Shown piece after piece: positions 1 through 47,244 of a DNA stretch of 51,932 nucleotides; the first letter of the stretch is position 1, and every line of letters begins with the position of its first letter. The stretch lies in the IMG/VR virus record IMGVR_UViG_3300035002_000025, positions 1 through 51,932 of that record; one strand, given 5' to 3'. The position numbers and the translations under genes are program-made. The DNA is from a virus. Taxonomy: Duplodnaviria; Caudoviricetes. The notes under the pieces were generated by a model. That model saw only the letters and a list, made by a program, of their open reading frames with translations, was not told the DNA's origin and did not search any database.

Positions 1-1086
1 CTATCGTTTCCGGCCTGAGCCCCGCACCTTTCCACCCGGTGCGGGGATAGAAGTTGCCTGCACGTTCTTTGCCATCAGCGGCGCTGCGTCTCTCGCGAGC
101 TTCTCGCGGTTAGCCGAACGGGTGTAGAGCGAGGCCATCCCGCCACCGCTCCAGCCGAAGATCGCCTCCAGTTGGGCTACCGTCGCGCCGTTGTTGGCGG
201 CCCTGGTGGCGCCGGCCTTCCTGAGCCCGTGGGCTGACTTGCGAACGCCACCGGCGCGGCAGGCTTCCGAGAACCAGTTCCCGAACGCCTCTTTGGTCAT
301 CGGAGCGCCCTTCTCCCCTACGATGTAGGCGAGGTCGCCGGTCGGCCCCTTTTCAAGGGCAATCGAGAGGTCGGGCAGAATCGGGATTGCTACCTCGATG
401 CCCGTCTTCTCGGTTCGGAGACGAAGGATGCCGTCGCGAACGTGCTGCCGGCCTACGCGGACGGCATCGCCGCGCCGAAGCCCGGTGTAGAGCAGAAGGG
501 CATAGGCGACCCGCTGGCGCGTCCCCAAGGCCCACTTACGCTCGAAAGCGTCCATGTCCTCGTCGGTCCAGACCGGGAAGCCCTTGGTCTTGGAGGCCGG
601 TGGCTTCACGCCATCCGTGGGGTCGGCCTTAACTAGGTCCGCATCTACGGCCCATTGGAAGATGCCTCGCATGGTGTCGAGGAAGTGCCGGGCCTGAGCA
701 GGGGTGGCGCGGCGTCTGTCCCGCCCAGCGACGACTTCCTTGCGGCCGATTTTCTCGATGGACTGATGGCCGGCGGTTTCGAGAACCGGGCGCAGGATGT
801 TTTCCCGCTGCTTGCGGGTGGCGAGCGAAAGGCTCGTCCACGCTGAGCTGTCCCGGTAACGCTCGACAAGCCAGCGCAGCGAACCAGACGCCGCCTTGCT
901 GTTGTCGGTAGATGCCTTGCCTTCCAGCGCAGCTTGATAGGCCGCCTTGAACTGTGGGCTATCGTATTCGCCACGGATGCGGATGCGCGGTCCATCGCCC
1001 TTGCGGACGTACCAGACGGGGTTTCCGTGGCGGTTGATCTCCCGCAGGAGATAAGGCGGGCGAGGCTTGGGCATGCTGTCGATCAC
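1..1086 (-). CDS. int: Tyrosine recombinase / phage integrase
   Basis: Catalytic motifs TGLRRGD (R), EKTG (K), HGLRK (HxxR), IFGW, ASLYTR (Y); N-terminal arm-binding-like region. Confidence 0.96.
   Translation of the reverse strand: MIDSMPKPRPPYLLREINRHGNPVWYVRKGDGPRIRIRGEYDSPQFKAAYQAALEGKASTDNSKAASGSLRWLVERYRDSSAWTSLSLATRKQRENILRPVLETAGHQSIEKIGRKEVVAGRDRRRATPAQARHFLDTMRGIFQWAVDADLVKADPTDGVKPPASKTKGFPVWTDEDMDAFERKWALGTRQRVAYALLLYTGLRRGDAVRVGRQHVRDGILRLRTEKTGIEVAIPILPDLSIALEKGPTGDLAYIVGEKGAPMTKEAFGNWFSEACRAGGVRKSAHGLRKAGATRAANNGATVAQLEAIFGWSGGGMASLYTRSANREKLARDAAPLMAKNVQATSIPAPGGKVRGSGRKR
20..46. repeat. 9-bp perfect inverted repeat in int 3' end (candidate Int binding site or hairpin)
   Basis: CCCCGCACC (20-28), 9-nt spacer, GGTGCGGGG (38-46). 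Confidence 0.5.
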
Positions 1087-5067: not shown

Positions 5068-5297
5068 GCCGCCCTCCTGAGGATCGCGAGGGCCTGCCGG
5101 CGCTGCTCGACGAGGGACGTACTGTCCCGACGCGCCTTGCGGGCCATTTCCGCCGTGATCTCGGCGATCTGCTCGTCCGTGAAGAACGACAGTCCGCCGT
5201 GTTCTGCGATGACGCGGCCAAGCGCGCGGTCGAACTCGCGGAACTCGGCCGTGTCGTGGTCGTCGATGAACTTCTCCTGGCGGGCGCGAGTGCTCAT
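5064..5297 (-). CDS. Hypothetical protein
   Basis: MSTRARQEKFIDD...RRAA; ATGA-coupled. Confidence 0.6.
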   Translation of the reverse strand: MSTRARQEKFIDDHDTAEFREFDRALGRVIAEHGGLSFFTDEQIAEITAEMARKARRDSTSLVEQRRQALAILRRAA

Positions 5298-5695
5298 GCC
5301 GCCCTCGCCAACCGGAGGACTTCGCTGTTGCCGGGCGGGTCGATGACGACGCACGAGCGCTCGAAGAACAGCGCGCCGACGTCTACACCGAGCCCCCAAG
5401 GGCCGTAGTAGGCCGTGATGTCCTCGGCACCCTCGCCGCGAGCCCATGCCCGCGCAGCGTCCTCGCCATGATCGTTGGCGATGCATCCGAAGCACTGGTC
5501 CGCGAAGGAGCGGGAGAAGACGAGGAACGCCGGCCGGCCCTCGCGCAGGGCGCGCACGGCCTTGAACTGGTGGCCGGTGTCGAAGGACCGATCACCGATC
5601 CGCTCGGCGATCTCCCGCGAGGCCCAATCCTCGCAGCGATACATCGACAGAAGCTCTGCATTGGTCGGGTCGGGACGAAGGGGAGGGGGAAGCAT
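5294..5695 (-). CDS. Hypothetical protein, first gene of leftward early operon
   Basis: MLPPPLRPDP...; GGAGAG RBS; downstream of PL-like promoter. Confidence 0.6.
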   Translation of the reverse strand: MLPPPLRPDPTNAELLSMYRCEDWASREIAERIGDRSFDTGHQFKAVRALREGRPAFLVFSRSFADQCFGCIANDHGEDAARAWARGEGAEDITAYYGPWGLGVDVGALFFERSCVVIDPPGNSEVLRLARAA

Positions 5696-5719
5696 GGGCG
5701 CTCTCCGTTGATAGGAGGC

Positions 5720-5771
5720 ACCATAGAATGGGAATAATCCCACTGTCAATAGGATAATGGGAAATTACCCA
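5720..5771 (-). promoter_or_regulatory. PL-like sigma70 promoter with two repressor operators (OL)
   Basis: Minus strand TTGACA (5749-5744), N18, TATGGT (5725-5720); operators TGGGAATAATCCCA (5729-5742, in the spacer) and TGGGAAATTACCCA (5758-5771). Confidence 0.75.
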
Positions 5772-5843
5772 CGATAAGCGTTTATACGTATCCGAATCAC
5801 TTGGCGTCGGGACTCGACTCTCCGACCCGTTCCCGCAATATGT

Positions 5844-5858
5844 GAACGAAAGAAGAAC
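5844..5858 (+). promoter_or_regulatory. Alphaproteobacterial LexA (SOS) box
   Basis: GAAC-gaaagaa-GAAC, 24 nt upstream of ATG 5883. Confidence 0.8.
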
Positions 5859-5882
5859 ATTGGGGCCACGCAGGAGGACTGA

Positions 5883-6134
5883 ATGACCGATGCCGAGTTG
5901 ATCGAAGTGCATGGCGTAGCAGCTCGGTTCCGGCTCCATCTCAGGTGCGACTTCTGCCTGATCGACAGCGAGCGTGTCATCGACGTGCCGGCGGTCGAGG
6001 ATGCCCCCGAGGACATCGATAGCCTCATCGAGAGCGGCTTTCTGGGCCGCCAGAGGTTCCAGTGCAGCAAGTGCGAGAGCCCGATCGCAACCCTTGTCGG
6101 CGCAACGCAATTCCGTCGCCGAGACGCAGCGTAG
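5883..6134 (+). CDS. Small Zn-ribbon protein
   Basis: CDFC...RFQCSKC; AGGAGG RBS. Confidence 0.7.
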   Translation: MTDAELIEVHGVAARFRLHLRCDFCLIDSERVIDVPAVEDAPEDIDSLIESGFLGRQRFQCSKCESPIATLVGATQFRRRDAA

Positions 6135-10256: not shown

Positions 10257-10729
10257 TGCAGACCGCCGCCGAACTCCGCGCCCATTACGATGCCGTCCGC
10301 GCCCGCCTGTTGAGACCCTTGCCGAAGCCTCCGACCGCGATCCTCGCGCTCAAATCCAAGCGCCCGCCGATCATCTATCCCGAGCGCCTGCGCCGATACC
10401 CACAGCCTATCGGGCCCGTGAAACCGATCCGCAGGGCTATCAGCCTCCGCTCGATCGTTGATGCCGTGTCGCTCCAGACCGGAATCGATGTTCGCGAACT
10501 GACCGGCCAGCGCCGGCTTCAGCCTTTGGTCGATGCTCGACAGGTTGGCTTCTACGTCGCGCGCAAACTGACCGGAAAATCCTTCCCGCAGATCGGCCAG
10601 GCCTTCGGCGGACGGGACCCCACGACGGTTCTCCACGGCTTCTACAAGATCGAGCAGCTGCTTCCCACCAACACGGCGCTCCGGTCTCAGATCGAGGCGA
10701 TCACCGAACTGGCGGAGGCGCGCCAGTGA
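10253..10729 (+). CDS. DnaA domain IV (Bac_DnaA_C)-like HTH protein
   Basis: ARQVGFYVARKLTGKSFPQIGQAFGGRDPTTVLHG, close to the DnaA C-terminal signature. Confidence 0.85.
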   Translation: MMQTAAELRAHYDAVRARLLRPLPKPPTAILALKSKRPPIIYPERLRRYPQPIGPVKPIRRAISLRSIVDAVSLQTGIDVRELTGQRRLQPLVDARQVGFYVARKLTGKSFPQIGQAFGGRDPTTVLHGFYKIEQLLPTNTALRSQIEAITELAEARQ

Positions 10730-11073
10730 CCCGCCAGCAGCAAGCCTTGCTCACCTTCATCCGCGAACACGTCGGCAGGAGCGGCTTCGCGCCGTCTTAC
10801 CGCGAGATGGCGGATGCGCTGGGGCTCCGGTCCAAGGCAGGGGTTCACCGCCTGGTGGTTGCTCTCGAAAAGCTCGGCCATATCCGGCGCCTGCCGAACC
10901 ATGCACGCAGCGTGGAACTGATCGAGGTCGATCAGCCGGACAACGTCGTCCGCAACCTGATCCCGGTGGACCCCGTCACCTACCATCGTGCGGTCTCCAA
11001 GGCCGCTGAAGCTGGCATGACCCTGGCCGACTTCGCGGCAACGGCTCTCAACTCCATGGGAGTGCAGCGGTGA
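10726..11073 (+). CDS. LexA DNA-binding-domain protein lacking the peptidase domain
   Basis: MTRQQQALLTFI...PSYREMADALGLRSKAGVHRLVVALEKLGHIRRLPNHARSVEL; 115 aa, short RHH-like C-terminus. Confidence 0.85.
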   Translation: MTRQQQALLTFIREHVGRSGFAPSYREMADALGLRSKAGVHRLVVALEKLGHIRRLPNHARSVELIEVDQPDNVVRNLIPVDPVTYHRAVSKAAEAGMTLADFAATALNSMGVQR

Positions 11074-26143: not shown

Positions 26144-26158
26144 GTTCTCTGTATGTTC
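26144..26158 (+). promoter_or_regulatory. Alphaproteobacterial LexA (SOS) box
   Basis: GTTC-tctgtat-GTTC in AT-rich gap upstream of dprA-like gene; TTGCAT at 26134-26139. Confidence 0.75.
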
Positions 26159-26230
26159 TTATGCCTGCATGTTTCCAGTTGACGCGGAAACCGAATCTCC
26201 TTGGATGAGTTTTGTGGGGGAGGACACGCT

Positions 26231-26980
26231 ATGGGAGTGCACGCATTGGCGCGCAGCGCTGCCTCCTCGTACCGCCGCCGATATGCCGCGCCGGACCTCG
26301 TCCAACACACCACTCTTACCCGCGTTCTAGACTTCCTTGGCAAGCCGCCACTGGAAGGTGTCCAGACATCGCTCCTCGATAGCAACCAGAGCAAGTCGGA
26401 CACGCACATTTTCTATGCCGGGGCCTTAGACCTGCTGAAGCGTCCATCGGTGGCCATCGTGGGTTCTCGCGAGGTTTCTGAAGACGGCGCCGCTCGCTCA
26501 CGGCATCTGTCAAAGAGGCTCGCAGAGAACGGCGTGACAGTCGTTTCCGGATTGGCCAAAGGCGTCGACGTCAATGCCCATCGGGCGGCGATGATCGCGG
26601 GCGGTCGAACCGTTGCAGTTATCGGCACGCCGATCGATCAAGCCTACCCCGCGGAGCATGGCGAACTGCAGTCCGAGATTGCCAGCGATCATCTGCTAAT
26701 CTCGCCATTTCCTGTTGGCTCAAAGGTCTACCCGGCGAATTTTCCGAAGCGCAACCGGGTGATGGCGGCACTTACAGACGGCACCGTGATCGTTGAAGCC
26801 GGAGATACCTCCGGCACGCTTCATCAGGCAGTCGAGTGCGAAAAGCTCGGTCGTTGGCTGTTCATTCTCCAGTCGGTCTACGACAACAAGGCTCTTGAGT
26901 GGCCCAAGCGTTACGCCAAGTATGAGCGCGTGAGAATCGTCTCCTCCGTGGAGGACGTGCTTGGCGCTCTTGGACTTTAA
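26231..26980 (+). CDS. dprA: DprA/Smf-family Rossmann-fold protein
   Basis: VAIVGSR, VVSGLAKGVD, AVIGT...YP.EH, FPKRNRVM, VEAG..SGT; GGAGG RBS. Confidence 0.93.
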   Translation: MGVHALARSAASSYRRRYAAPDLVQHTTLTRVLDFLGKPPLEGVQTSLLDSNQSKSDTHIFYAGALDLLKRPSVAIVGSREVSEDGAARSRHLSKRLAENGVTVVSGLAKGVDVNAHRAAMIAGGRTVAVIGTPIDQAYPAEHGELQSEIASDHLLISPFPVGSKVYPANFPKRNRVMAALTDGTVIVEAGDTSGTLHQAVECEKLGRWLFILQSVYDNKALEWPKRYAKYERVRIVSSVEDVLGALGL

Positions 26981-27626
26981 CTTTGAGACTATACCGCTTC
27001 ATGCCCGCGTAGCCTATCCATCGTGGGATTTTCAGGCCGTTCCATTCCGTGAAGTAGATCACAACGCACATTTCTATACGCACGCGGTGAAAAACGACGC
27101 GAAGAAGATCGGGACGCGAACGAAGAACCTGAAGGTGGGTGTGAACGGTGAGAGCGTGCTGGTTAGCGCGTCGAACCTCATCGTGGTTCAGAGGCATTTT
27201 GCCAGGTTCGTGGCTCGAACAATCAAAGATGCTGGCATAGCTGACCCTGTGATCATCGCGATTCCCAATCGGGATGCGCTGCGGACCATTGCCGACTTCA
27301 ACACTGCGCGGCTCGCCGCGCTTGCCGCTGAGGCCTTCGGTTCGGGTGCTCAGCCGTATGCAGGTCTTCGCTTCAAAAAGCTCATCCCTAAGACCGAAAA
27401 AAGGCGTCTCCGCCCCGATGACCTTGCGCCAAACATGGAGATGGTCACGGATCTACCGAAGGGCACCTTGGTTCTGCTCGACGATGTCTACACTCAGGGC
27501 CATCACGTCCGGGCGTCCTGCAAAGTGTTGGACTGCAAGCCCGTGCTAGTTTGTGTCGCGGCGAGGACCGAGAACGAGCCCTTGCCGAACATGACCAAGC
27601 CAAGGGCTCTGGAGCACACTGTTTAG
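26961..27626 (+). CDS. Phosphoribosyltransferase-fold (ComFC-like) protein, partner of DprA
   Basis: PRPP-loop-like LVLLDDVYTQG; IIAIP; overlaps dprA, GGAGG RBS before TTG. Confidence 0.75.
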   Translation: MALLDFNFETIPLHARVAYPSWDFQAVPFREVDHNAHFYTHAVKNDAKKIGTRTKNLKVGVNGESVLVSASNLIVVQRHFARFVARTIKDAGIADPVIIAIPNRDALRTIADFNTARLAALAAEAFGSGAQPYAGLRFKKLIPKTEKRRLRPDDLAPNMEMVTDLPKGTLVLLDDVYTQGHHVRASCKVLDCKPVLVCVAARTENEPLPNMTKPRALEHTV

Positions 27627-44947: not shown

Positions 44948-45184
44948 TTAGATCAGCCCGCCCGGCGGCTTCGGGCCCCATTCCACGGTGAAGCTGAACT
45001 TGTCGGACTGGCAGCTCGTGCAGCGCATCCGCGAGTGCTCGAAGACCTCGGCGAAGACAGCATCGTCGCCGGCGCGCAGCTGCGCGAAGGAGAGCTTGGC
45101 GCTGTGCCGGCAGAACCGGCACGAGACGATCGCGCCGATGGCGCCGCGCGCCTTCAGGTGGTGGACTGTTGGGCGCTCGGCCAT
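44948..45184 (-). CDS. Zn-ribbon protein (paralogue 3)
   Basis: PTV..LKARG..GAIVSCRFC...RMRCTSC. Confidence 0.7.
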   Translation of the reverse strand: MAERPTVHHLKARGAIGAIVSCRFCRHSAKLSFAQLRAGDDAVFAEVFEHSRMRCTSCQSDKFSFTVEWGPKPPGGLI

Positions 45185-45193
45185 CTGCGCCGC

Positions 45194-45466
45194 TCAATCA
45201 ATGTCGAGGACGGCCAGCCGCATCTCGTGCAGCAAAGCGAGCGTCACCGGCGTCTCGCGGTCCTTCGCGACTTCCATGTATGTCTTCAGCAACTCGGCGA
45301 CCTCGCCGCGATCCAGCAAGCCGCGCCGCTCCATGGCGAGCACGAGCACCTGATAGGCTGCCGTTGTTGCGGCAATGTGGGCCGAAAGCACTTCGGGATC
45401 GGCCGGCGGGCGAGGTGGCTTGTTCGAAGGCACCTTACCGACGAGTGGAATCTTCCTGTCCTTCAC
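45194..45466 (-). CDS. Hypothetical protein
   Basis: GTGA overlap with SRAP; helical. Confidence 0.6.
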
Positions 45467-46110
45467 GGCGCCTCATCCTTCTTTCCGCCCTTCGCCACGA
45501 TGACGAGCGATCCGTCGGGGAGGGGGCGCTGCAGCACCTTCGCTTCGTCCCACGGTGCGCGCAGCCAGACATCTCGCTCCTCGGCCGTCGTGAGGATCAC
45601 CGGCATGGCCTTGGGATGGATAGCCTTCACTTCCGCGTTCGGATCTGTCGTCAGGAAGCCGTAGAGGTCGGTGGTCACCTCGCCCTCTGCCTTCTTGCGG
45701 ACGCTCGTCCAGGTCGTCCACACGCCGGCGAAGGTGGCGAGAGGACGATCTTCAGCGAACGCGAACCAGATGTCCCCGCCGGCCTCCTTGTTGAACTCGG
45801 AGAATGAGGTGAAGGGGACGAGACATCGGCTCTCCGGCTTCAGCCAGCGCCGCCAGTGGGGCGAGGCGGTGTTGCGGATGTTGGTCACGCCCTTGTCGAC
45901 CGACTTGCCTTCCAGAGCAAAGGTCGGGGAGGGCATTCCCCACCGCGCCATCGCCAGTTCTCGCCCATTCGGTCCCTCGCGCACGATCGGCGCGGAATAG
46001 TCCGGGAAGATGCCCGGCATCGACGGGAGGTTGCCGGTGCGGTCGGCGATGGCGCGCGCCAGTTCGATGATGGCCTGCTGGCTCTTGGTCAGGCTGTAGA
46101 GATTGCACAT
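45463..46110 (-). CDS. SOS response-associated peptidase (SRAP/YedK/HMCES family)
   Basis: N-terminal MCNLY (Cys2), [21 protein letters not shown]. Confidence 0.95.
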
Positions 46111-46144
46111 GGCGGCACGCTATCAGGTCAGGGGCGGTCGGACA

Positions 46145-46465
46145 TCATAATGGGCCGGGGCGCTTCTGGTGGGTGGCATCAGGGACGATGTGGAAGCGCT
46201 GGCAGCCGCATTTCGTGCACCGAGCCCGGATGGAGTGGGCGATCTGGGGAAAAGGCAACTCTGGCGGCAGGTTGACGTCTTCCCAGAGGATCACTTTCCA
46301 GTTGCCGCATCGCCTACCGCTCGGAAGGGTGCCGTTGCAGCAGACGTGGAAACCGATGCAACCCTCGGCCTTGCAGTCGGCGATCGTAGGCGGCGGGCCC
46401 CGCACATGCGCCGCCCGGCGTGCATCGTCTATCCAGCGCTCATCTTCCGGTTCCAATCGCTTCAT
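46145..46465 (-). CDS. Zn-ribbon protein (paralogue 2)
   Basis: Start MKRLEP at 46465; PTIADCKAEG..GFHVCC...RRC...RARCTKCG. Confidence 0.7.
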   Translation of the reverse strand: MKRLEPEDERWIDDARRAAHVRGPPPTIADCKAEGCIGFHVCCNGTLPSGRRCGNWKVILWEDVNLPPELPFPQIAHSIRARCTKCGCQRFHIVPDATHQKRPGPL

Positions 46466-46695
46466 GGCTCGCCTCCGCTTGGCACTGCCGGCCGGATGCT
46501 GAACTCTCGCCCGCCACATGCCGTGCATCGCATCCGCAGCCGGTAGGGAACCAAGTCGAGGTCTTCCCATATCGACACCCGCATCTCGGACCAGGTCAGC
46601 CACCGTCTGCGAAGGCAGTTTCGACACATCACCCGGGCACCCGTGACCCCGCCGCTCATGCACATGAAGATGAAGACGCGACGCTTCGGGCTCAT
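46462..46695 (-). CDS. Zn-ribbon protein (paralogue 1)
   Basis: GVTGARVMCRNC...RMRCTACGGREF; ATGA-coupled. Confidence 0.7.
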   Translation of the reverse strand: MSPKRRVFIFMCMSGGVTGARVMCRNCLRRRWLTWSEMRVSIWEDLDLVPYRLRMRCTACGGREFSIRPAVPSGGEP

Positions 46696-46913
46696 GGCAG
46701 CTTGAGCGTATCCATACCCATGTAGACGCGGCCCCGAAGATACCCCCGGCTGGTCGTCCGAACGTTGTCCAGCGCCAGCGTCGCAATGTCCTCGAACAGA
46801 GCGCGAATTGCGCGCCGCGGGTCGCCATCGAACTCAGCGAGCACGTCCTCAACGTCCTGATCGGTGATGACTTCGGACACGATTTCTCGATCCGAGCGGC
46901 GTGGCGCGGTCAT
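46692..46913 (-). CDS. Small conserved alphaproteobacterial protein, first gene of SOS-boxed operon
   Basis: VLAEFDGDPRRAIRAL...SRGYLRGR; GGAG RBS. Confidence 0.75.
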   Translation of the reverse strand: MTAPRRSDREIVSEVITDQDVEDVLAEFDGDPRRAIRALFEDIATLALDNVRTTSRGYLRGRVYMGMDTLKLP

Positions 46914-46940
46914 ATTCGTCTCCGGTGGACGGCATGGATC

Positions 46941-46955
46941 GTTCCTGTTATGTTC
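46941..46955 (-). promoter_or_regulatory. Alphaproteobacterial LexA (SOS) box
   Basis: GTTC-ctgttat-GTTC, 27 nt upstream of ATG 46913; shares flanking ATGTGAAC with the 5844 box. Confidence 0.82.
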
Positions 46956-46992
46956 ACATCATCCGGCGCGTGGCAAGCGGGGGTGTGGACAG

Positions 46993-47244
46993 GTGGTGAA
47001 GTTCACGGAAACCGAGACTGAGCAAGGCGGGTGGGACATCATCGCCGTGCCCGAGAACGAGGCTGACATGCGTTTCCTCGCGGAGGACAGCCCGTCGTCC
47101 GCCCTGGGCTATGTGAAGCTGGTTCTGCGGCACGCCATAGAAGCCGCGGGAGACGTGGACGCGCCGAAGTTGACGGCGGCGATCGAGGATGCGCTTCAGG
47201 CGGCCCATGAGGTGAAGGTGCCCACAACGGCAGGCCAGAAGTAG
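46993..47244 (+). CDS. Hypothetical protein divergent from the SOS operon
   Basis: MVKFTETETEQGGWDIIAVP...; fills gap. Confidence 0.55.
   Translation: MVKFTETETEQGGWDIIAVPENEADMRFLAEDSPSSALGYVKLVLRHAIEAAGDVDAPKLTAAIEDALQAAHEVKVPTTAGQK

Follow-up and report, generated by a model that had tools for sequence, protein, structure and literature searches.

The provirus IMGVR_UViG_3300035002_000025 (Duplodnaviria; Caudoviricetes), which constitutes the window analysed here (the complete IMG/VR provirus record of 51,932 bp, with a completeness estimate of 98% and a GC content of 65%), carries in its right arm a SRAP gene packed with three genes of small Zn-ribbon proteins behind a perfect LexA operator. 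This locus raises the question of whether the small proteins encoded beside SRAP act in the same process as SRAP or are brought together with it by a shared operator. The comparison of related loci reveals that ribbon genes are linked to SRAP genes across deeply diverged SRAP lineages and that the LexA box is conserved near them. The whole picture, an SOS-controlled cassette in which SRAP, the ribbons and the small protein small73 serve one process, has in our estimation a probability of about 0.5.

An earlier note on this DNA had described six co-oriented genes headed by an SOS box, and both the positions of the open reading frames (ORFs) and the exact box agree with this order. The six minus-strand ORFs are tightly packed between positions 44948 and 46913 and display a GC content at third codon positions (GC3) of 0.73-0.92, a bias of coding DNA. 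They encode successively small73 (46692-46913; 73 aa, with the motifs GDPRRAIRAL and SRGYLRG), the Zn ribbon ZnR1 (46462-46695; 77 aa, four cysteines, net charge of about +9), the Zn ribbon ZnR2 (46145-46465; 106 aa, with an N-terminal helical extension and a first knuckle widened to C-x9-C), SRAP (45463-46110; 215 aa, starting with MCN), helical90 (45194-45466; 90 aa, with a GTG start that overlaps the stop codon of SRAP) and the Zn ribbon ZnR3 (44948-45184; 78 aa). Overlaps of 4 nt between start and stop codons are observed at the junctions small73/ZnR1, ZnR1/ZnR2 and SRAP/helical90, while helical90 and ZnR3 are separated by 9 nt and ZnR2 and SRAP by 34 nt. The hexamer TAGCGT, noticed earlier as a possible leaderless promoter of SRAP, is indeed present within this last gap, 6 nt before the ATG. 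A GGAGA Shine-Dalgarno sequence is localized 5 nt ahead of the ATG of small73. The three overlaps and the 9-nt gap suggest an operon-like cassette whose genes would be co-transcribed.

The LexA operator (46941-46955) is an exact match to GTTC-N7-GTTC (GTTCCTGTTATGTTC, read as GAACATAACAGGAAC in the direction of the cluster) and is positioned 28 nt upstream of the ATG of small73, the first gene of the cassette. This form of the SOS operator is the one given for Caulobacter in Table 1 of a review (PMC9578287). The box lies in a divergent intergenic region of 82 nt (46914-46995) that the cluster has in common with a plus-strand ORF (46996-47244), and may therefore control both directions. The motifs TTGCCA (46976-46971) and CATAAC (46952-46947), separated by a spacer of 18 nt, could represent a minus-strand promoter of the cluster (46947-46976) with its -10 element inside the LexA box; a scan with consensus promoters detected no strong sigma-70 site at the cluster. 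The cluster is thus presumably repressed by LexA, as far as the operator and its position indicate. The window contains five perfect GTTC-N7-GTTC sites against 1.33 expected, a number reached in two of 100 shuffles, and three of the five are followed, after 25-43 nt, by a start codon (those of the genes at 5883 and 26201 and of the SRAP cluster).

The three Zn-ribbon proteins are paralogous, as had been proposed: pairwise BLASTP comparisons give E-values of 9e-9, 1e-6 and 2e-9, and the residues G16, G19, V22, C24, R54, R56, C57, T58, C60 and F65 are common to all three. Of the two shared motifs of the earlier note, the second has to be corrected to R.RCT.C....F, with four residues and not three before the phenylalanine. 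A search of the window with the profile of the family recovered three matches only, namely ZnR1, ZnR2 and ZnR3. The protein encoded at 5883, presented earlier as a looser, SOS-boxed relative with CxxC pairs, is preceded by a box (5844-5858) and contains two such pairs, but its homology to the family is unsupported (hhalign probability of 62%, over 15 columns only). Given this weak comparison and its absence from the matches of the profile in the window, its candidacy as a fourth paralogue was rejected as unproven.

The profile of the three paralogues detected 96 cluster representatives among 1.84 billion proteins at E <=1e-3, and 8 at E <=1e-10. The family is characterized by the signature PPT(I/V)..L...G..G..V.C..C ... 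RFRC..CG with four conserved cysteines; over 49 sequences C24, C27 and C60 do not vary, and at least 90% of the sequences have C57. The AlphaFold2 (AF2) model of ZnR1 (pLDDT 89.3; strands 19-24, 30-34 and 65-70) predicts two Cys knuckles on beta hairpins, the arrangement of a Zn-ribbon fold. ZnR1 is basic, with about 15 Arg/Lys against 6 Asp/Glu counted from the sequence. Relatives occur as stand-alone ribbons, with a helical N-extension as in ZnR2, or lengthened at the N terminus by an 'ERPGR..LRHGARV' domain. This N-terminal motif, ERPGR..LRHGARV(I/V)R, is found on or before many chromosomal ribbon genes (L004, L005, L008-L010, L013, L022 and L023, where L numbers denote the related loci that were fetched) and as a separate ORF in L002 (4655-4939); the domain has no Pfam match. 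No model of Pfam, PHROG, NCBIfam or PADLOC matched the ribbon family above any cut-off, and a search of PDB sequences with the ribbon profile gave nothing below E 0.16. A word-index homology search with ZnR1 provided no candidate, a pattern scan of viral contigs gave 83 pattern matches of which none was confirmed, and 50,697 phage records searched by tblastn with ZnR1 gave no match. Because profile searches did find relatives, we regard these three null results as limits of sensitivity; detection of the ribbons is limited by their fast divergence.

As for the other small proteins, homologues of small73 adjoin SRAP or ZnR genes in 17 other loci. Its AF2 model (pLDDT 72) comprises helices 18-27 and 32-58 and a disordered tail bearing the conserved motif, and its matches in Pfam are weak, sub-threshold and UBA-like (E 0.015 and 0.061); given so simple a model, we assign it no fold. 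For helical90, phmmer recovered only the protein itself among all fetched loci, and Pfam and PHROG gave no family match. In the Protein Atlas, ZnR1 and small73 fall in 'hypothetical protein' clusters only, and PADLOC found a defence-system match for none of nine proteins.

The SRAP of the window matches PF02586 (81.9 bits, where the cut-off is 27.1; E 6e-23; positions 1-199 of 214) and phrog_1599 (E 1.3e-39), and its nearest solved relative is the Agrobacterium pAT protein AGR_pAT_140 (PDB 2AEG, E 2.7e-52). After the Met-Cys start, C2, N77, E105 and H165 are invariant among 34 aligned relatives, and we take them to be equivalent to C2, N75, E105 and H160 of YedK. With this full-length Pfam match, the Met-Cys start and the invariant Asn, Glu and His, the protein resembles YedK and HMCES and looks active. 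Its chemistry is most likely of the YedK/HMCES type, in which the protein becomes joined covalently, through a thiazolidine, to abasic sites of single-stranded DNA (ssDNA) (PMC9436759; PMC6821365). It differs from housekeeping SRAP by being short (215 aa), divergent and a member of a phage-borne clade (82 bits with the Pfam model, against about 230-264 bits for the housekeeping copies of the same taxonomic order), and by its LexA box and its linkage to the genes of Zn ribbons and small73, neither of which is seen at the housekeeping copies.

The analysis of gene neighbourhoods was anchored in turn on SRAP and on the ribbon. The SRAP-anchored set consists of 36 phage loci, namely 32 IMG/VR loci (46-87% identity to the SRAP of the window) and four of eight phage records; the cultured-phage records examined were those of phi2LM21, Agrobacterium phage Rivra, Paracoccus phage Pyei1 and 'Synechococcus' phage Ssp-JY39. 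A perfect box is found within 1.5 kb upstream of SRAP in 26 of the 36 loci, against 1.4-3.5 expected; less than 700 bp of upstream sequence is available in 7 of the 36. The profile detects a ribbon in 11 loci and a small73 homologue occurs in 13, so that 19 of 36 contain either one. Box, ribbon and SRAP are present together in phi2LM21, Rivra and Ssp-JY39, and Pyei1 has an ORF that is ribbon-like by eye. The ribbon and SRAP genes are translationally coupled or separated by at most 10 nt in L028, L043, L045, L078, phi2LM21 and Rivra.

The SRAPs linked to a ribbon belong to four lineages, among them the MCNLY clade that includes the SRAP of the window. The SRAPs of L003, L059/L061 and L070 are 26%, 31% and 27% identical to that of the window, respectively, and about 40% identical to each other. 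Gene order also varies: box, small73, ribbon and SRAP follow each other on one strand, or elsewhere the ribbon and small73 diverge from SRAP across the box. In L048, L059, L061, L070 and L078, ribbon and SRAP are adjacent without any box, even when one mismatch is allowed. These four lineages, the varied gene order and the five box-free pairs indicate that neither a common operator nor the spread of one cassette accounts for the link. As a control, the surroundings of the 20 housekeeping-type SRAP genes that score highest in the 401 Hyphomicrobiales genomes described below contain no small73 and no ribbon detectable by the original profile; the iterated profile gave one marginal ribbon match (E 6.6e-4, 2.1 kb away), and 3 boxes were counted in 134,620 bp, none of them upstream of SRAP. 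The neighbourhood analysis suggested in the earlier note thus gives strong links of the ribbons with both SRAP and SOS boxes, which recur across diverged lineages and are absent at housekeeping SRAP genes apart from the one marginal match.

For the ribbon-anchored set, 401 Hyphomicrobiales genomes were sampled, drawn from the order of a Methylobacterium metagenome-assembled genome (MAG). The ribbon profile matched 48 of these genomes in 63 places (a separate scan of genome contigs gave 2 loci only), and 40 loci were fetched, which correspond to the 43 best of the 63 places with one place at E 4e-5 skipped. A SRAP gene is present within 4 kb of the ribbon in 14 of the 40 loci (L003, L006, L007, L009, L010, L011, L012, L015, L059, L061, L070, L071, L073 and L078), against about 0.1 expected, a rough estimate that rests on about 513 SRAP places in the 401 genomes; the loci compared here are not phylogenetically independent. 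Besides these 14, L005 and L013 contain only an N-terminal fragment of SRAP. Many of the loci are prophages or mobile remnants, as indicated by portal, terminase, integrase, resolvase or insertion sequence (IS) genes. In a Rhizobiales MAG (L001, 1-340), a tRNA-Thr gene adjoins a truncated copy of the end of ZnR1 (30 aa, 73% identity) and of the start of ZnR2, apparently what remains of a related prophage at an attachment site. Close relatives of small73 were found in a Phreatobacter MAG.

The box accompanies the module beyond the window. An identical or near-identical box precedes the small73 or ZnR homologues in L006, L007 and L011, and considering perfect boxes only (as in all our counts except the one-mismatch check of the loci without box), a box is found within 400 bp of a module gene in 28 of 53 related loci. 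Up to this distance the 53 loci contain 30 boxes against 5.9 expected (Poisson P 2e-12), and the density there, 0.34 per kb, is five-fold that in the remaining sequence of these loci (0.068 per kb).

Two further small-protein observations concern these neighbourhoods. A second family of small Zn-chelating proteins (HYC..GC.KWG ... W.C.EH), unrelated to the ribbon, adjoins or just follows SRAP in six loci (L045, L047, L049, L055, L056 and L058); it includes p61 of phi2LM21 and is not encoded in the window. L058 (PP438429) was deposited as a Synechococcus phage and has a GC content of 61%, LexA boxes of alphaproteobacterial type and a ribbon-SRAP module, so its true host may deserve a second look.

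Aravind, Anand and Iyer (2013; PMC3765255) named SRAP from SOS neighbourhoods and noted its presence in prophages, and one sentence of their article mentions two uncharacterised Zn-ribbon-like domains encoded where SRAP and Ku occur together. The likeness, judged from this description, is the presence of small Zn-ribbon-like proteins adjoining SRAP; we find here two distinct Zn-chelating families beside SRAP, which may be the 'two Zn-chelating domains' of those authors. As differences, Ku was not found in the window and ligases are present only in phi2LM21, and the accessible sections give no LexA-box or phage analysis for these domains. The Sinorhizobium prophage phi2LM21 provides a close comparison: according to its description (PMC5537653), SRAP is an 'extra gene' of the right arm after the lysis genes, with an N6-methyladenine (m6A) methyltransferase further along, a place on the phage map that matches that of the cassette in the window. 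In our analysis of phi2LM21 we recognize the same module of box, small73-like p63, ribbon-like p59 and SRAP p58. Two DNA ligase genes flank this module, which has one ribbon, whereas the window encodes three ribbons but lacks a ligase gene. That description names SRAP only and calls its neighbours hypothetical. In full-text searches on SRAP and YedK, we found no description of a ribbon-SRAP module and no bacterial SRAP partner beyond the sentence in PMC3765255. The suggestion of the earlier note that the partner proteins were undescribed fits this record, with that sentence as the single precedent in the accessible text, as well as the lack of Pfam, PHROG, NCBIfam and PADLOC models.

On our preferred reading, the six genes would form a mobile cassette repressed by the LexA protein of the host and carried among the accessory genes at the right end of a temperate phage of Alphaproteobacteria. 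No Peptidase_S24 protein was found in the window, hence the phage probably reads DNA damage through host LexA. In the lysogen, LexA would occupy the box overlapping the promoter; DNA damage would remove it, and the genes would then be made together from one transcript. SRAP, with its Cys2, Asn, Glu and His residues, would cap abasic sites in ssDNA and keep replicating phage or host DNA from breaking. Since the prophage would be induced by damage, the cassette would be switched on when the template carries abasic sites and replication exposes them in single-stranded form, a timing that would follow from the reading of host LexA and from the position of three of the five boxes just before genes. 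The basic four-cysteine ribbons, and probably small73, would act in the process of SRAP. The basicity of the ribbons and their coupling to SRAP in many diverged loci lead us to prefer an accessory function, exerted either on DNA or on SRAP: the ribbons may be factors that bind nucleic acids or SRAP itself and that target, restrain or release it, although what they do is a guess. Damage sensing, resolution of cross-links and protection from base-removing defences, as proposed in the earlier note, are likewise conjectural. The Zf-GRF zinc ribbons of APE2, NEIL3 and TOP3A, which are fused domains of eukaryotic proteins, bind ssDNA and serve enzymes acting at abasic sites or on ssDNA; they offer a functional analogy for the proposed accessory role, and no homology is claimed. 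As a more tentative extension, the ribbon family and small73 might be a dedicated cofactor set of mobile bacterial SRAPs, in which the ribbons recognise ssDNA or the SRAP-DNA cross-link and control attachment or release. Phages would have amplified and diversified the ribbons (three copies here) so as to adjust the protection of their replicating DNA when the SOS response induces them, possibly also against base-excising defences.

Several observations weigh against the preferred reading. The ribbon is detected by profile in only 11 of the 36 SRAP-anchored loci, and others are ribbon-like by eye only (neighbours below the threshold in L024, L040, L042, L043, L051 and Pyei1). Reciprocally, 26 of the 40 ribbon loci have no SRAP; their contexts are varied, with no recurrent neighbour around the ribbon gene, and the SRAP-less copies of L002, L004, L020 and L022 are still LexA-boxed, which suggests a possible function of the ribbon in the SOS response independent of SRAP. 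The linked SRAPs are decayed in at least three loci (L006, L010 and L015). Three of the 40 loci, L059, L061 and L062, two of them among the 14 linked ones, are near-identical and come from one genome (G320). The model of ZnR1 resembles generic Zn ribbons only, with a best Foldseek E-value of 0.088 (HypA, MCM N-domain) and a best Z of 3.6 in the VIA fold search, again a generic Zn-ribbon match. In the window itself, the box also faces the divergent ORF 46996-47244, and the 34 nt between ZnR2 and SRAP contain no clear ribosome-binding site. Regarding the decayed genes, the SRAP of L006 (9860-10414) is truncated and its Cys2 is replaced by Trp, that of L010 (8115-8750) has an internal stop and that of L015 (5092-5725) a frameshift.

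The main rival explanation, which we consider doubtful, is that the Zn ribbons, small73 or both are LexA-controlled antirepressors or switch regulators of prophage induction, SRAP being a cargo under the same operator. Coliphage 186 Tum is reportedly such a LexA-controlled antirepressor. A study of SPbeta Sar (10.1101/2025.11.27.690993) describes LexA-controlled antirepressors as small, poorly conserved and phage-specific. The ribbons resemble these modules, and those of the Gifsy phages (PMC3121763), in being small, fast-diverging and multiplied and in standing behind a host LexA operator in a prophage where no self-cleaving repressor of the Peptidase_S24 type was found and SOS sensing would go through host LexA; they also occur elsewhere as units of box and ribbon without SRAP (L002, L004, L020 and L022). 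Moreover, the box at 5844-5858 lies in the immunity region, before a two-CxxC protein in cro-like position. However, no sequence relation to the antirepressors was found, nor any match to an antirepressor family of PHROG or Pfam, and ribbons adjoin SRAP in non-prophage islands and IS-rich regions. Adjacency is kept at SRAP lineages only 26-31% identical to that of the window and in five box-free loci, where ribbons accompany SRAP without any LexA box, and a shared operator does not explain this.

A second and rather improbable rival is that the ribbons, as SOS effectors in their own right (for example by modulating RecA or LexA, inhibiting replication or division, or binding ssDNA), are only co-selected with SRAP within a pool of damage-response genes and do not act on it. 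The 26 ribbon loci without SRAP and the strongly basic ZnR1 would agree with such effectors, and the second, unrelated Zn-chelating protein beside SRAP in six loci suggests a loose guild and not a fixed complex, whereas the coupling or gaps of at most 10 nt in several diverged loci are more typical of cooperating proteins. Finally, an accidental match of the box in front of unregulated phage accessory genes, a view to which the shuffles reaching five boxes and the promoter scan without sigma-70-like match lend something, appears close to refuted by the comparative data, the same box occupying the same place in dozens of diverged loci against a background of 0.022-0.026 per kb.

The rest of the window is organised as follows. 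The integrase (1-1086, minus strand) occupies the left end of the window and is followed by the ERF and YqaJ recombination genes, then by a rightward early operon encoding GapR-like, VRR-NUC and DnaA-C proteins and a protein with the LexA DNA-binding domain only. Then come the terminase, portal, tape-measure and tail genes, the AT3-SGNH acyltransferase and the lysis block, and finally the right arm, 8 kb of minus-strand accessory genes with a DNA methyltransferase at the end, which contains the SRAP cassette. Across the boxed intergenic region from small73, the divergent plus-strand ORF (46996-47244) encodes 82 aa with a GC3 of 0.81 and matched nothing in the family libraries scanned. The AT3 and SGNH acyltransferase (PF01757 and PF19040; 38556-40532, minus strand), between the tail fibre and lysis genes, is likely a lysogenic conversion gene that modifies surface polysaccharides.

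Other features of the window concern LexA. The early protein with the LexA DNA-binding domain (10726-11073; PF01726, E 1.2e-16) matches residues 5-73 of E. coli LexA and has no cleavage domain; it could be an uncleavable LexA mimic acting on the same boxes. The second box (5844-5858) is localized in a divergent, immunity-like region (5294-6134), 25 nt before the gene of the protein at 5883, which has 83 aa, two CxxC pairs and a cro-like position; the leftward ORF of 151 aa (5294-5749) belongs to no family. This region may be a lysis-lysogeny switch read directly by host LexA. A DprA/SLOG-like gene (26201-26980; PF02481, E 1.3e-53) has the third perfect box (26144-26158) 43 nt ahead of it and is followed by an overlapping ORF of 221 aa with a phosphoribosyltransferase-like motif by eye. 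This gene pair (region 26144-27626) lies in an island of lower GC content (56-59% against 65%) wedged between tail genes and looks like SOS-controlled accessory genes.

SRAP/HMCES is a conserved guardian of abasic sites, for which the targeting and the removal of its DNA-protein cross-links are unsettled. The ribbon-SRAP partnership, kept across SRAP lineages, hints at the first dedicated helpers of bacterial SRAP and yields a short list of candidate proteins of 70-110 residues; at least one cultured and non-pathogenic phage-host pair that carries the module, phi2LM21 in Sinorhizobium sp. LM21, is usable for genetics. The cassette also adds a defined class of SOS-controlled accessory modules to alphaproteobacterial prophages, which appear to read host LexA directly and not via a self-cleaving repressor.

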